The notes: generated by a model not told the origin, from the letters alone. A DNA stretch of 64,000 nt from Methanomicrobia archaeon (GCA_011049045.1 DSCO01000022.1:1260-65259), one strand, 5' to 3'. Positions 47,029 through 61,489 are shown, counted from the first letter of the stretch. Numbers and translations: made by a program.

Positions 47029-47103
47029 GCTCCGCTGGTGTAGTTCGGCCAAGCATAAGGGCCTCTCGAGCCCTTGACCGGGGTTCAAATCCCCGGCGGA
47101 GCA
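47029..47103 (+). tRNA. tRNA-Glu (anticodon CUC)
   Basis: Hand-folded cloverleaf: acceptor GCTCCGC/GCGGAGC, anticodon stem AGGGC/GCCCT with loop CT-CTC-GA, T arm CGGGG-TTCAAAT-CCCCG, discriminator A. No encoded CCA. Confidence 0.9.
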
Positions 47104-55476: not shown

Positions 55477-56268
55477 ATGGTGCCGTACGTATTGCGCGCA
55501 CCGCAGGGGCTGTTTACCGTGCCTTCAGTGAGCTCACATTCCGAGGAAGCGAAGCCGCCCGCGCATCGCGGACGCAGCGGGGCAGCACAGTCAAGAGCAC
55601 GCATATCCACCGGTCTGCCGCGGCTCGATCCGATCTTGGGCGGCTTCAAAGCGGGCACCGTGAGCCTGATTGAGGGCAACCATCCCCTCATCTCCGAGGC
55701 GCTCTCGCTGCTCGCCATCAATGCGGTCACGCACTTGGAAAAATCGGTCGTGTACGTGGACGGCGGTAATTCCATTGATCCTTACCTCATTGCGACGCTC
55801 GCCAAACGGTCAGGGGTAAAACCAGCTCAGGTGCTACAGCAGATCCTGGTTGCACGGGCGTTCACCGCGTATCAACTGGACACCATCATCTCTGATCGGC
55901 TCGAAGCGGTGCTCGATCAGGCAGAGCTAGGCCTGCTGATCGTTGCTCGCATTACAGATCTCTTCCTGGATCGGGCGGTGGCAGAGAAGGAGGCACTCGC
56001 CATGTTGAGCCGATGCGTTGCGCGCATCGAAACGAGCACTCACGATCGAGCGCTGATCACCGTGGTCACGAAGCGGCGACGAACGCCTTCATCGCGCGCG
56101 CTGGCGTTCGATGAGATCCTCGCGAAGCTCCCGGAAGACCGGATCAGCGTAGAACGCAGGAGGAAGGGCGTCAGGCTGCACCAGCACACGCGCGATATCA
56201 TCATGGACTACGTGCCGCTTTCGATCTATCAAACGACCCTGGATGAGTTCATAGGCGGTGGTACGTGA
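55477..56268 (+). CDS. RadB/RecA-fold protein lacking Walker A and Walker B residues
   Basis: ISTGLPRLDPILGGFKAGTVSLIEGNHPLISEAL...VVYVDGGNSIDP...LLIVARITDLF is colinear with RadB. The P-loop GxxGxGKT is replaced by GNHPLISE, and the Walker B Asp by Ala. Confidence 0.65.
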   Translation: MVPYVLRAPQGLFTVPSVSSHSEEAKPPAHRGRSGAAQSRARISTGLPRLDPILGGFKAGTVSLIEGNHPLISEALSLLAINAVTHLEKSVVYVDGGNSIDPYLIATLAKRSGVKPAQVLQQILVARAFTAYQLDTIISDRLEAVLDQAELGLLIVARITDLFLDRAVAEKEALAMLSRCVARIETSTHDRALITVVTKRRRTPSSRALAFDEILAKLPEDRISVERRRKGVRLHQHTRDIIMDYVPLSIYQTTLDEFIGGGT

Positions 56269-56548
56269 GATGGGTAGGACGGTCCGCACCTATCGGACGG
56301 TGCTGGAGGAGTTGATCGCCGACTGGGAACGGTTTCGGAAAGCGCTGCGGAAAGAGGATCGGGAAGCGTTCGATCGCCTGATGGCGAAAGCGCGCACACA
56401 TGCCAGTGCGGCCAGCTACGACGCACGCGTTGACCCCAGCGAATCGCTCTTCATGTCTATTCTGGTGGAGCTGGAACGCGAGCTCGAGGCGCTCAGAGCG
56501 AAGGTCGCGGAGCTTGAGCAGCAGCAGAAGGAGGAGCAAGAGCAGTGA
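56258..56548 (+). CDS. small helical/coiled-coil protein
   Basis: 96-aa ORF overlapping both neighbours, with a C-terminal ELERELEALRAKVAELEQQQKEEQEQ. Confidence 0.5.
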   Translation: MVREMGRTVRTYRTVLEELIADWERFRKALRKEDREAFDRLMAKARTHASAASYDARVDPSESLFMSILVELERELEALRAKVAELEQQQKEEQEQ

Positions 56549-58773
56549 ACGGCTGGGTACTCGATGTCGGTGCGGATTATGAGCAGAACTCGATCATGCT
56601 CTGGCTGAAGCAGGAGAGCGGTTTGGTCGAAGCGGTGGAATGCCCCTTCTTACCCTCGCTTTATGTGCACGCGGCGCCGGCGAACTTGCAGGTGCTGGAA
56701 GAGACCTTCGAGGACGAGCCGTTCGTCAATGCATGGGGGTACGAGGAGAAACGTCTGTGGCCGGGCGAGCCTGCGCAGGAGGTATTGCGAATCACGCTCG
56801 CGGAGTACCGGATGCTTATGAAGCTCGCGCGCGAGATCGACGAGATGGGTGATTACTCGCTCTACGAGCTCTTCAACGTGGATCTCAGCATCCCCACGGC
56901 GTTTATGCTGGAGAAGGGCATCGTCCCGATGGCGCAGATCGGACTCAAGAAACAATCAGAGTTCGAGCTGCTCGAAGATCTCACCGCGATTGATTATCCG
57001 GTACCAGAGCTCCGAAGCGTCAGCCTGGAGGGCAAGGTCAACGCTACAAGCACGCAGCACATGGCTGCATGTCCAATATCTGAGCTCTTGCTGGACGGCC
57101 AGCCGGTAGCGGGTCGCACTGAGCGGGATTTGCTCAGCGGACTCATTGAAGCCATCACTGCTAGGGATCCGGACATCATTTACACCCCTAACGGCGACGC
57201 GTTCCTCATCCCGTACCTCATGGAGCGTGCACGGGTCAACGAACTCGATGACTTCTGCCTCGGCCGCGGACGCGACCTTCGGCCGGTGGGGCAGCCGAAG
57301 TCCTATTTCAGCTACGGGCGCGTGATCTACCGGCCACCGAAATGCCGCTTCAACGGCCGGATACACATCGATCAGAGCAGCTCGTTCCTCTTCCGCGAGG
57401 GTGGCCTTCCCGGCCTGATCGAGCTCGCACGATTATCCCGGATTCCGCTGCAATCGGTATCCCGTGTGACACCCGGCACGGTGATCACCGCGATGCAGAT
57501 CGCAGAAGCGTCGCAGGAGAACGTCCTCATCCGCTGGAAGAAGAACGTGCCCGAGGCGTTTAAAGACGCGCAAACGCTCTTCCTCGCTGATCGCGGCGGC
57601 ATGATTTACGATCCCCGCGTGGGCGTCCATGAAGACGTGGTGGAGATCGACTTCACCTCGCTCTATCCAAGCATCATGGTCAAGCATAACATCTCGCCTG
57701 AGACCGTGCTCTGCTCGTGCTGCCCGGATAGCAGCCACCGCGTCCCGATCATTGATTACCCGATCTGCGAGCAGCGGGTGGGGCTGATCCCGCGCGTCCT
57801 GGAGCCGCTGATCGCGCGCAGGAGTGAATACAAGCGACGCGTGAAAGCGAAAAAATGGCAGGATAACTGGGCGATCTATGAGGCACGCAAGAACGTGCTG
57901 AAATGGATCCTCGTTACCTGTTTCGGCTATACCGGTTACAGAAATGCACGGTTCGGACGGATCGAATGCCACGAAGCGATCAATGCGTACGGCAGAGAGC
58001 TTTTGCTCCAGACTGCGCAGATCGCCGAAGAGCGCGGCTACGAGGTGCTCCACGGGATCATCGATTCGCTCTGGTTGAAGGGCGCCGCGCAGAATGCACG
58101 CGACCACGAGCTATTGCGGCAAGCGATCGAGCACGAAACGGGCATGCCGCTGGAGCTCGAAGGCGTGTACCGCTGGGTCGTCTTTCTGGCCCGGAAGTCC
58201 CAGAGCACGGGCGCGCTGAACCGCTATTACGGGCTCTTCGCGGACGGCACGATGAAGATCCGCGGCCTGGAGCTGAGGCGTAGCGATACGCCGCAACTGA
58301 TCAGGAACGCGCAACTGGATCTGCTGAAGGTGATGGCCCGAGCTGATAACGTCGCGGCGCTGTACGAGCTCATGCCTGACGTGATCGGGGTGCTCCGGAG
58401 GTACGCTGATCGCATCGTGAACGGCGAGTGCGCGTTGGAGGAGCTGGTCTTTACGCCCGTGGTCTCACGCGAGCTCGAGTTCTATTCGCACCTGACCAAC
58501 AGCGCCGCCTGCCTGCTCCAGTTGAAGCGGCGTGGACGTGCCGTGCACCCGGGCGAGCGGATACAGTACATCGTGACTGATGCCGGCTCAGCGCGCATCG
58601 CGAAGAAGGTAAAGGCCTGGGCGCTGGTTGACGGCACGGAACAGTATGATAAGAAGCGCTACGTCCGGCATTTGCTCAGGGCAGCCGAAAGCATCCTCTC
58701 ACCGTTTGGCTATACGGAGCGCAAACTGGCAGAGATCATTAAACCTACAAGACAATTGACGCTTCCGATCTAA
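56545..58773 (+). CDS. polB: family B DNA polymerase, divergent (exonuclease motifs degenerate, motif C variant)
   Basis: Motif A DFTSLYPSI; motif B K..L....FGYTGY; motif C HGIIDS (canonical DTDS); RGLELRRSD. ExoI reads SLE instead of DIE, ExoII reads NGDAFLIPYL (FD to FL), and the ExoIII segment is missing. Confidence 0.9.
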   Translation: MNGWVLDVGADYEQNSIMLWLKQESGLVEAVECPFLPSLYVHAAPANLQVLEETFEDEPFVNAWGYEEKRLWPGEPAQEVLRITLAEYRMLMKLAREIDEMGDYSLYELFNVDLSIPTAFMLEKGIVPMAQIGLKKQSEFELLEDLTAIDYPVPELRSVSLEGKVNATSTQHMAACPISELLLDGQPVAGRTERDLLSGLIEAITARDPDIIYTPNGDAFLIPYLMERARVNELDDFCLGRGRDLRPVGQPKSYFSYGRVIYRPPKCRFNGRIHIDQSSSFLFREGGLPGLIELARLSRIPLQSVSRVTPGTVITAMQIAEASQENVLIRWKKNVPEAFKDAQTLFLADRGGMIYDPRVGVHEDVVEIDFTSLYPSIMVKHNISPETVLCSCCPDSSHRVPIIDYPICEQRVGLIPRVLEPLIARRSEYKRRVKAKKWQDNWAIYEARKNVLKWILVTCFGYTGYRNARFGRIECHEAINAYGRELLLQTAQIAEERGYEVLHGIIDSLWLKGAAQNARDHELLRQAIEHETGMPLELEGVYRWVVFLARKSQSTGALNRYYGLFADGTMKIRGLELRRSDTPQLIRNAQLDLLKVMARADNVAALYELMPDVIGVLRRYADRIVNGECALEELVFTPVVSRELEFYSHLTNSAACLLQLKRRGRAVHPGERIQYIVTDAGSARIAKKVKAWALVDGTEQYDKKRYVRHLLRAAESILSPFGYTERKLAEIIKPTRQLTLPI

Positions 58774-59410: not shown

Positions 59411-59521
59411 GCAAGAGCTGGTCGTTCTAAAATCCGAGATTTTACCCCTAAGAAGTTTCTGCCTGTGGTACGTGCTCCGAAGGGCAGAAACATCTTTAGC
59501 GGTCGCCCGACCAGCTCTTGC
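59411..59521. ncRNA. candidate structured RNA (or DNA cruciform): three-way junction closed by a perfect 14-bp helix
   Basis: gcaagagctggtcg (59411..59424) pairs with cgaccagctcttgc (59508..59521). Inner hairpins are 59428..59444 (7 bp, triloop) and 59451..59495 (9 bp + 3 bp around one A-A mismatch). No ORF of 60 aa or more on either strand. Confidence 0.3.
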
Positions 59522-59713
59522 TTTGATTTGAGCAGGGCATGTTCAATCCGTTTGATCGAGCGAAGGAGAAACCTTCACTCTTCCCGTTGAATTTAGGACG
59601 AGAGACTCCGCTCTCGTGCTCTCGGTAAAACAAAAAAATTAGAGGGGAAGAAGAAGGGGGGTGGAGGAGGCGGATAAGGCGGCGAAGAAGAAGAAAGAAG
59701 AGGAGAAGAAAAA

Positions 59714-60031
59714 ATGAGAAGAATGAAGTTTGTAGTAAGGAAAGTGAAGGAGTGTTTGGTGAGGGAAGGTGTGGTTTTTAGTGTGAGAAAGTGGGGTGGT
59801 ATTGGAAAGTGTAGTGAAGTGATAGTTGAAGATGTGGGAGTTTGTGAGAAGAGATGTGTAAGGTGGATTGAGAGTAAGGAGGAGTTAAAGGAGTTTGTGG
59901 GGTTGAGTGGGTTGAGAAGTGTGGATGAATGGTGGAGGTGGTGTGAGAAGTTTGGATGTAATAAAGGTGGATGGTTGTGGGAAGTGAAGGTTGTGAAGAG
60001 AATGAAAGGGGGTTTGGAGTTATGGATGTGA
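59714..60031 (+). CDS. 105-aa protein encoded entirely by cytosine-free codons, function unknown
   Basis: ATG preceded by a polypurine/GGAGG-rich leader. There are no in-frame stops although all three stop codons are C-free and are frequent in the other two frames. All Arg codons are AGA/AGG. No Ala, Pro, Thr, His or Gln. Confidence 0.7.
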   Translation: MRRMKFVVRKVKECLVREGVVFSVRKWGGIGKCSEVIVEDVGVCEKRCVRWIESKEELKEFVGLSGLRSVDEWWRWCEKFGCNKGGWLWEVKVVKRMKGGLELWM

Positions 60032-60056
60032 AAAAGGTCCTGCGACGGTGGAGAAT

Positions 60057-60075
60057 CCGACGGTGGGACCGTCGG
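60057..60075 (+). other. GC-rich hairpin 26 nt downstream of the cytosine-free ORF
   Basis: ccgacgg-tggga-ccgtcgg (7-bp stem). Preceded by a direct repeat of cgacggtgg at 60043. Confidence 0.4.
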
Positions 60076-60202
60076 AGGTTAATGATTCTGGAAGAGCTCC
60101 TGGGGGGAGTGAGGACCTGTGGAGGTGTGTAATATGATTTATGATCCCTGGCATAGGCCTGCAACCGGGATCGAATCCTGGAGGGATCACAGGAGGAATG
60201 AA

Positions 60203-61021: not shown

Positions 61022-61489
61022 GTGAAGAAAGTACAGTGCAGGCTTGCGCCGCAAGCTGGAACCGGCTCCGCGATCGACCGCAAGCGCAGAAAGGCAGCGC
61101 GCGCGAAATTTGCCGGAAATTTGGTGGCATTGGCGACGCCGCCCATCTCGCCGCACTCCCCGCGCCCGTGCGTTCGCAATCCTTCTGGCAACTTCGAGCT
61201 CGTGCTGCGTGAACGGCAACAGGCGGCTAAGGTCACCGTGCCCCACAAACTCGTCTGGCATAGCACGCCGAAGGTCGCCCGCATACAGGCGATCGAGCCC
61301 TATTATTCCAACGGGCAGCTGCTCTTCCTCGATACCTGGAACCGTGATTATCCCGAGCTCGTGGAGCAGCTGATCCCCTACCCGCTTGCAGCGCATGACG
61401 ACGGGCCTGATGCGCTCGCCGGCGCTATCGCGCTGATTCTTGCGAATGAGAAGGCGCAAAGGCAGGTGCTTATTCCGCGTGCGCGATAG
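61022..61489 (+). pseudogene. C-terminal fragment of a terminase large subunit (nuclease domain end)
   Basis: VARIQAIEPYYSNGQLLFLD...LIPYPLAAHDDGPDALAGAIALI matches the conserved terminase C-terminal block (..HDD..DAL..A). The ATPase and most of the nuclease domain are absent. Confidence 0.55.

Follow-up and report, generated by a model that had tools for sequence, protein, structure and literature searches.

What would keep one of the four letters out of an entire gene when the DNA around it uses that letter freely? The question is raised by a locus in a 64,000-nt stretch of a Methanomicrobia archaeon assembly (GCA_011049045.1, DSCO01000022.1:1260-65259; this whole stretch is called the window below, and positions are counted from its first letter), in which a base count found cytosine to be absent from the + strand over 355 consecutive nucleotides (59684..60038). 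This strictly C-free tract comprises a 30-nt leader that is rich in purines and has a Shine-Dalgarno-like GAGGAG, a whole open reading frame (ORF) of 105 codons (59714..60031, +), and 7 nt past the stop codon. Sequence comparisons across homologous loci indicate that, in several lineages, the sense strand of this transcription unit is purged of every C by selection.

At the C content of the window (28.5%), a run of 355 C-free bases would arise by chance with a probability of ~10^-52. The runner-up C-free run of the window is 39 nt long (59632-59670) and lies directly upstream of the tract, while all runs free of A, G, or T are at most 46 nt. This shorter run forms part of a C-poor polypurine upstream leader (59632..59683, +) that contains three C (59671, 59680, and 59683) as well as an A/T run, AAAAAAATTA, that is a candidate TATA box; the extra leader segment is present only in the sub-clade of the window and the viral contig L006. 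A 128-codon ORF on the opposite strand (59778..60164, -) was rejected as a gene and is regarded as a by-product: No minus-strand gene is called in any homologous locus, and the frame is long because a G-free minus strand permits only TAA stops.

Evidence for a nucleotide-level constraint on a coding gene

The ORF encodes a 105-aa protein with a predicted ASCH (PUA-like) fold that is identical to NCBI entry HDS44905.1 from a Methanomicrobia archaeon metagenome-assembled genome (MAG) and uses 15 amino acids. It contains 10 Arg (all AGR), 8 Trp, and 6 Cys, and no Ala, Pro, Thr, His, or Gln. All 105 codons are open, as compared to 16 and 11 stops in the remaining two + frames, and the tract's own composition would yield such an open frame with p = 2.5e-5. 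Differences between homologues follow the pattern of a coding sequence, with 19, 14, and 38 differences at codon positions 1, 2, and 3 between the window and locus L001 and with 10 synonymous and 5 non-synonymous codon differences between the window and its closest relative. These patterns argue strongly that the ORF is a real gene that is translated and under purifying selection.

The gene differs sharply from the neighbouring genes of the same element in its synonymous choices. Codons ending in C make up 0/50 of the positions where a synonymous alternative exists (301/535 in the neighbours), and neither CGN codons for Arg (0/10 versus 104/125) nor CTN codons for Leu (0/7 versus 139/169) are used, so that Arg, Leu, and Ser are drawn from C-free codon families only; the joint probability of the three biases is ~10^-31. 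At the protein level, Ala, Pro, Thr, His, and Gln together account for 25% of residues in the neighbouring genes and for none here. Among four close homologues that align without gaps, 98 of 315 sites are variable and not one of these carries a C in any sequence; pairwise comparisons of the same four count 205 A<->G and 0 C<->T differences, with T altered by transversion only. The synonymous-codon test and the 98 variable sites without C thus place the constraint, by all appearances, on nucleotides and not on amino acids. A first-pass annotation of the window, made from its sequence alone, had reported the tract limits (last C at 59683, next at 60039), the three C upstream, and the ORF with its residue composition, all of which our counts reproduce exactly; its further claims of a real gene under selection and of a constraint acting on nucleotides are borne out by the codon-position pattern and by the synonymous and variable sites, respectively.

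Simpler sources of the bias were considered and discarded. Plain amino-acid composition as the cause of C-freeness is excluded by the synonymous-site test. NNC and NNU codons share tRNAs, and a tRNA-based explanation was rejected because NNC codons are avoided although common tRNAs read them together with NNU. Avoidance of restriction sites or protospacer-adjacent motifs was likewise rejected, since the effect is strand-specific, involves a single gene, and spares non-palindromic sites.

Close homologues and diverged lineages of the family

Whether homologues are C-free as well had been named by the first-pass annotation as the key test of selection, and the answer is yes both for close homologues and for diverged lineages. 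A protein search over 5.8 billion proteins yielded ten clusters with 70-86% identity; the DNA of these clusters and additional loci from metagenome and genome scans made up a set of 13 close loci from JGI, ENA, Logan, and NCBI assemblies (69-95% amino-acid identity). In all 13, the gene is covered by a C-free tract of 292-378 nt, with 0-3 C per gene on contigs that contain 18-30% C overall. In this close clade the tract opens 14-60 nt before the ATG with a purine-rich leader that includes a Shine-Dalgarno sequence, and it closes 7-17 nt past the stop. Scans of IMG/VR found no locus of the close clade and, for distant members, a single weak one (L017). A set of 50,697 phage records, queried by tblastn with the window protein and with two distant relatives, gave no match.

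A profile search of 1.84 billion cluster representatives recovered 146 relatives at E<=1e-3, mostly of 90-130 aa and mostly with ordinary amino-acid alphabets, and the locus DNA was examined for some of these. C-free tracts of 194-830 nt were found in at least four more lineages, whose proteins share 37-46% identity with that of the window. The most extreme is L028 (protein P0034), with an 830-nt C-free run between flanks and neighbours of 35% C, for which the chance probability is ~10^-154; P0034 is a 274-aa fusion of the family domain to a Cys-rich C-terminal extension, and both domains are C-free. The loci L023, L024, and L025 (P0085) have a 400-nt C-free run that is 44% T (25-33% C in flanks and neighbours). 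Near-complete avoidance was found in L016 (P0014), with 1 C in 286 nt against a surrounding 27%, and in L026 (P0131), with 2 C in 291 nt against 23%, followed by L027 (P0102; 12 C in 306 nt, 22%) and L015 (P0012), where the gene has 4% C and its surroundings 19%. The same C-free rule therefore appears to hold in at least five deeply diverged lineages of one protein family.

It does not hold throughout the family, so that the picture of C-free homologues stands for several lineages and fails for others. The C-avoiding lineages are no nearer to the window protein than the C-normal members P0011 (44%) and P0017 (47%). Synonymous sites carry C in 19/48 codons of L018, 16/41 of L019, and 16/43 of L021, where CGN also encodes 11 of 12 Arg; the mild C deficit of these three C-normal members is accounted for by their amino-acid composition. 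In L022, whose protein cluster comes from a Bacteroidota MAG, C is only mildly depleted. When at most 4 Ala/Pro/Thr/His/Gln per 95 residues was used as a proxy for C-avoidance, ~28 of 142 representatives qualified, and these are spread through one half of a neighbour-joining tree. C-avoidance is thus either ancient with losses or repeatedly gained. Since normal use of C is seen in L018, L019, and L021, among others, it is no intrinsic requirement of the protein, and its driver depends on the host or virus lineage.

Two further observations concern the distribution of the domain. The contig L018, whose family gene (140-496) uses C normally, has a second C-free stretch of 147 nt (2460-2606) that covers a 47-codon ORF (MKRKMKFKEYVKEYIKNELKIDIVRF...) with a family-like N-terminus followed by a hydrophobic segment. 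The domain is also embedded in the giant proteins P0042, P0084, P0114, and P0122 (1407-4674 aa), one of which has DprA-like and Pam3 gp33-like domains and two of which have an N-terminal LysM; a domain scan of P0084 and P0122 returned the LysM domain only. These giant fusions resemble phage polyvalent or virion-associated proteins.

The predicted fold and a threonine weighed against cytosine

An AlphaFold2 model built on a 65-sequence alignment is of high predicted quality (predicted local distance difference test, pLDDT, 93; predicted template modelling score, pTM, 0.85) and shows a PUA-like beta-barrel of ~100 residues that can be superposed on solved ASCH structures. Foldseek matched it among viral models to the ASCH protein of Sulfolobus virus SIRV2 with probability 1.0, so that an earlier, tentative guess of an ASCH/PUA-like domain is confirmed at the level of the modelled fold. 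At the sequence level, a Pfam search of six distant relatives gave nothing at E<=0.01, and the family profile found nothing below E 0.9 among PDB sequences. The viral PHROG family phrog_17595, which is of unknown function, is matched by 30 of the 65 aligned members (best E 3e-8); the window protein itself has no PHROG match at E<=0.01 and is tied to members of phrog_17595 through the profile search.

The family has an invariant Thr-Val-Arg motif, which in the window protein reads Ser23-Val24-Arg25 (59780..59788, +), and recoding of the Thr to Ser (AGT) is what lets the gene stay C-free at this position. All 35 C-normal members keep the Thr, as compared to Ser (AGT) in 9 of 13 C-avoiding ones. 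The sole C inside the L016 domain lies in the invariant Thr codon, and P0009 and P0010, both members of the C-free clade, regained C exactly at the codon for the motif Thr. Judged by these exchanges, a functionally preferred Thr seems to be traded off against a penalty on each single C. Because the only C of the L016 domain and the regained C of P0009 and P0010 sit in this very codon, we infer that the penalty is applied per C and irrespective of context, which in turn would call for a process that reads single cytosines, such as incorporation of CTP (cytidine triphosphate) or an analogue, a base-specific ribonuclease (RNase), or a deaminase; a process that recognizes a motif, or a bulk property such as folding, is a poorer fit.

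The motif also aligns with the E. coli N4-acetylcytidine amidohydrolase YqfB, for which the catalytic residues are Lys21, Thr24, Arg26, and Glu74, with a Lys21-Thr24-Glu74 triad (PMC9599836). In an hhalign comparison to YqfB, only Thr-Val-Arg pairs (with T24-I25-R26), without reaching significance; across the family, the acidic position before WW varies. Since no equivalent of Lys21 is conserved, we file the protein under the ASCH fold and not under YqfB-type N4-acylcytidine amidohydrolases. A cytosine ligand is only suggested, given that the YqfB catalytic Lys and a Pfam ASCH match are both lacking.

The extent of the tract and its flanking elements

Archaeal promoters have a TATA box near -26 and a pyrimidine/purine initiator, and oligo-T runs act as terminators. 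In three separate lineages (L023, L028, and L026), an A/T run is centred 25.5-29.5 nt upstream of the first base of the C-free tract, this base is a purine that immediately follows a C, and the tract closes at, or no more than ~20 nt from, oligo-T runs. Because this spacing matches archaeal promoter and terminator geometry, the tract looks like an apparently whole transcription unit, and in all three lineages C-freeness from +1 to the stop fits the predicted geometry. C is back to normal within 150-200 nt past the tract.

In the window, the first C past the tract fall in nested inverted repeats (60039-60078). These include a perfect 9-bp stem-loop (TCCGACGGT GGG ACCGTCGGA; 60056..60076, +), located 25 nt past the stop codon, that is a possible 3' stabiliser or processing signal. 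The stop of the C-free gene is overlapped (ATGGATGTGA) by a small ORF for a 36-aa Arg/Trp-rich peptide (MDVKKVLRRWRIRRWDRRRL...; 60022..60132, +), which is listed by gene callers as a 32-aa gene and is probably translationally coupled to the C-free gene. Counterparts of 32-37 aa are found at L006 8009-8122, L001 1159-1257, L004 956-1054, and L013 4232-4330. The small ORF is C-poor, not C-free, and uses some C-containing synonymous codons; its core (...RRW[RK]IRRW.. / ..WR.KRWERRRR..) resembles arginine-rich RNA-binding peptides.

Other unusual elements lie near the gene. A structured 111-nt element (59411-59521, +) ~190 nt upstream of the tract has a minimum free energy of -56 kcal/mol (z -5.0 versus shuffles), with a perfect 14-bp closing stem (59411-59424 / 59508-59521) around two hairpins. 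It is kept in L006, and a relative in L007-L010 shows a compensatory change in its small hairpin (AAAAT/ATTTT versus AAAAC/GTTTT). An Rfam scan of the whole window matched tRNA-Glu only and left this element unmatched; it could be a non-coding RNA, an origin, or a packaging or regulatory site. In the diverged lineage of L023 and L024, G-free polypyrimidine tracts of ~100 nt flank the C-free gene (L023 1907-2006 and 2460-2509; L024 165-264 and 1940-2036), repeated C-rich motifs (CCCGCCCACCCCTCAACA) occur on either side of it, and a perfect 15-bp palindrome (CCAAATTTTTTACCC / GGGTAAAAAATTTGG) that includes the TATA-like run straddles the start of the tract and could serve as an operator or as two promoters placed face to face.

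A partly decayed provirus as the genomic setting

The left 47 kb of the window hold methanogen housekeeping genes (A-type ATP synthase, methanogenesis marker 16, cysteate synthase). A tRNA-Glu gene (47029-47103) then stands at the left end of a region that is syntenic with the viral contig L006 and extends to at least 61.5 kb. The C-free gene therefore sits in a partly decayed head-tailed (Caudoviricetes-like) archaeal provirus integrated next to the tRNA-Glu gene, as is evident from the large terminase TerL in L006 and L001 (phrog_38, E 7e-75), the tRNA adjacency, and the viral synteny. Decay is apparent from ~7.5 kb (L006 8874-16393) that are missing in the window between 60893 and 61188 and from truncation of the terminase, of which the ORF at 61022-61489 is a C-terminal remnant that keeps only the last ~100 codons (61190-61489). 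The C-free gene is intact inside this decaying provirus. It had been described as opening a block of virus-derived genes, and this is apt insofar as it is the first gene of a rightward block toward the terminase; the provirus itself begins at ~47.1 kb, so that the gene is not at the viral edge.

The C-free gene lies between replication and packaging modules, beside a long intergenic region. Downstream of the C-free gene, L006 encodes small ORFs, an ArdC-like anti-restriction gene at a distance of 2 kb (PF08401 and PF18818, phrog_7245, with a zincin peptidase domain), a gene for a TATA-binding-protein-like (TBP-like) factor, and TerL, which is found in the same block in L001. A TBP-like gene of their own (PF00352, E 4e-13) is carried by the related viruses, in L006 together with the ArdC-like gene (L006 13745-14446 and 10079-10936; L001 4333-5049; L002 3806-4522). 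In L002 and L004, an HNH endonuclease gene directly follows the C-free gene.

The proviral region also contains segments without a counterpart in L006 (~51.6-55.1 kb and 55477-56268), which include genes for 2-thiouracil desulfurase-like, DUF1670, UbiA prenyltransferase, and RadA-like proteins. A family B DNA polymerase gene (56545-58773, +) is missing at the syntenic position of L006, where the equivalents of 56467 and 58842 are joined, and its C-terminal part is found in L010; it looks like a variable module of these elements.

What could remove every cytosine

An RNA without C could be made without CTP and would present no cytidine, so that it would escape any attack on C whatever the sequence context. 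Candidate attacks would be chain-terminating CTP analogues such as viperin-type ddhCTP (3'-deoxy-3',4'-didehydro-CTP), CTP starvation, a cytidine-specific RNase, or a C deaminase, under any of which the protein could still be produced while ordinary transcripts fail. We therefore propose that the C-free transcript is completed and survives under a C-directed attack and that it encodes a counter-defence factor handling cytosine nucleotides, a proposal on which we are evenly divided. The product would most likely bind or process a cytosine nucleoside or nucleotide and thereby counter a host defence, because the nearest solved relative hydrolyses cytidine derivatives and because the gene has anti-restriction neighbours close to the packaging end of the viral genome. 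In general terms, a counter-measure would have to be expressible during the attack that it counters.

Several observations weigh against this proposal. All other viral genes have normal C, which obliges the model to assume that the product of the C-free gene gets them expressed again. The 47 kb of host DNA yielded neither a viperin nor a C-specific RNase or deaminase; no systematic viperin search was made in it. The leader of the sub-clade of the window and L006 has 3-7 C, which matters if it is transcribed; in the window itself, three C stand 31-43 nt before the ATG. The ORF of L016 extends ~20 C-rich codons beyond the domain. As for the protein, Pfam assigned the window sequence to no family at E<=0.1 and hence not to ASCH (PF04266), PADLOC gave no match for it and no family common to the members, and the position three residues before the motif Thr/Ser, taken as the equivalent of Lys21, varies between V, R, K, M, and E. 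The version with ddhCTP is weakened in particular, since the archaeal (Asgard) viperins that were tested are promiscuous and make ddhUTP and ddhGTP along with ddhCTP (bioRxiv 10.1101/2023.09.13.557418). A specific "bootstrap" form of the proposal, in which the C-less unit is completed despite ddhCTP or CTP depletion and the ASCH product then binds or destroys the analogue or inhibits its source so that viral expression is reopened, is accordingly one that we hold to be rather unlikely.

Other explanations share parts of the evidence. The C-free tract might reflect self-avoidance if the ASCH protein binds, cleaves, or modifies cytidine in RNA and its own mRNA has been purged of C, much like toxin or restriction genes without their own target sites. 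The Zymomonas ASCH protein ZmASCH is reportedly a ribonuclease, the trait is tied to one protein family over very different sequence backgrounds, the tract coincides with the predicted mRNA, and a context-independent action on C would explain a total purge. Against this stand the C-normal members L018, L019, and L021, given which avoidance is not intrinsic to the activity of the protein, as well as the normal C of the same virus's other genes, which would be hit as well; moreover, YqfB-type ASCH enzymes showed neither RNA binding nor RNase activity (PMC9599836). We regard self-avoidance as a doubtful explanation. A selected physical property, that is, an unfoldable mRNA or a G-rich non-template strand (R-loop or G-quadruplex) that serves as origin, recombination, or packaging site, would agree with the near-unstructured RNA of the tract (-9.9 kcal/mol, or -0.028 kcal/mol/nt versus a mean of -0.335 for other 355-nt segments), the 42% G of the window copy, and the position between replication and packaging modules near a strongly structured intergenic element. 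However, such a property could tolerate a few C, yet there are 0-3 per lineage, with the rare C in the codon of the invariant Thr; conservation extends to the absence of C only and not to G-richness (L023 has 44% T and 33% G); and the trait tracks the protein family and, in L028, the fused domain instead of a genome position. This makes a physical property quite improbable as the cause.

An origin by mutation and without selection would require C-to-U deamination, spontaneous or by a host, viral, or self-encoded deaminase, on the transcription-exposed non-template strand. It would account for an effect that is strand-specific and limited to the transcribed unit, for the existence of T-rich versions such as L023, and for the enrichment of Trp and Cys in the window clade that CGG->TGG and CGY->TGY changes predict. 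The function-preserving recoding that is observed nevertheless needs transversions (Thr->Ser from ACN to AGT; AGR codons for Arg by C->A), where deamination would instead yield Thr->Ile/Met and Arg->Cys/Trp/stop. The third base at four-fold Val and Gly codons (13 G, 9 T, 7 A) is not dominated by T, co-transcribed downstream sequence regains normal C so soon after the tract, and the C-free state is kept down to 37% protein identity, all of which leaves a purely mutational origin very improbable. The possibility of an artefact (an assembly chimera, bisulfite-like damage, or a laboratory C-less/G-less cassette) has nothing in its favour except the oddity itself and is effectively refuted: The exact protein is recorded in assemblies from NCBI, JGI/IMG, ENA, and Logan, homologues that have diverged and are still C-free occur in syntenic viral surroundings on more than 20 independent contigs, and the substitutions are distributed as in a coding gene. 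Laboratory or synthetic DNA in particular was rejected in view of the diverged environmental homologues, the coding bias, and the lack of any match in the 50,697 phage records, a search that had plasmid and vector collections outside its range.

If selection truly removes every C, there would have to be an archaeal selective agent that acts on C irrespective of context, be it an analogue, depletion, a base-specific nuclease, or a deaminase, and the viral route around this agent could be read directly from sequence. Mononucleotide-free ORFs would then be a genomic signature for counter-defence genes and for the chemistry of undescribed defences. The family would also represent a natural experiment with a reduced alphabet, in which 15 amino acids make up a domain that is predicted to be well folded (by the pLDDT given above) and Ser takes the place of an active-site-equivalent Thr. 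If true, the "bootstrap" form would have no forerunner, either as a counter-defence of the anti-viperin type or as a natural use of a three-letter transcript.

Comparison with known systems

The first-pass annotation knew of no natural precedent, and none turned up in our full-text literature searches, where the only genes or transcripts without one nucleotide were laboratory C-less or G-less cassettes and an evolved cytidine-free ribozyme; searches on ASCH domains in phages and on anti-viperin factors gave no precedent either. A methods paper states that long stretches free of one nucleotide are missing from natural DNA and RNA except for repeats (PMC6526412). C-less cassettes reportedly serve in archaeal transcription assays (PMC4495717), and an in-vitro-evolved ribozyme without cytidine has been reported from the R3C lineage (PMC4192621). 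These are alike to the tract described here as three-letter, three-NTP (nucleoside triphosphate) nucleic acids of low structure. They differ in being artificial and non-coding, whereas the present gene is natural, protein-coding, conserved, and recurrent, and it offers natural C-less templates for archaeal transcription studies. To our knowledge, conserved coding units of 350-830 nt from which a whole letter has been removed have not been described before.

With ASCH proteins such as YqfB, ZmASCH, and that of SIRV2, the window protein shares the predicted fold and a Thr/Ser-x-Arg motif at the position of Thr24/Arg26. It differs from them in having neither a Pfam ASCH match nor a significant PDB match and in the variable Lys21-equivalent, and we know of no ASCH gene that has been reported to lack cytosine.

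Early anti-defence genes of phages include T7 Ocr, the T5 pre-early genes, and ArdC and other polyvalent proteins. The C-free gene is like them in its small size, in having a predicted promoter of its own (L023, L028), in its placement in a block with ArdC-like or HNH genes beside the packaging module, and in that its domain is found within giant multidomain phage proteins. Unlike them, it has no homology to a known anti-defence protein and no PADLOC or anti-defence annotation.

The closest parallel in logic is the avoidance of target motifs, as known from MazF-resistant mRNAs without ACA, restriction-site avoidance in phages, CpG depletion in response to ZAP, and the depletion of APOBEC motifs. 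In these systems and apparently in ours, the element recognized by a hostile factor is purged at synonymous or conservative sites. The difference is one of scale and of price: Here, a whole letter is gone from a single unit of up to 830 nt while the rest of the genome is untouched, at the cost of five amino acids and of the active-site-equivalent Thr.

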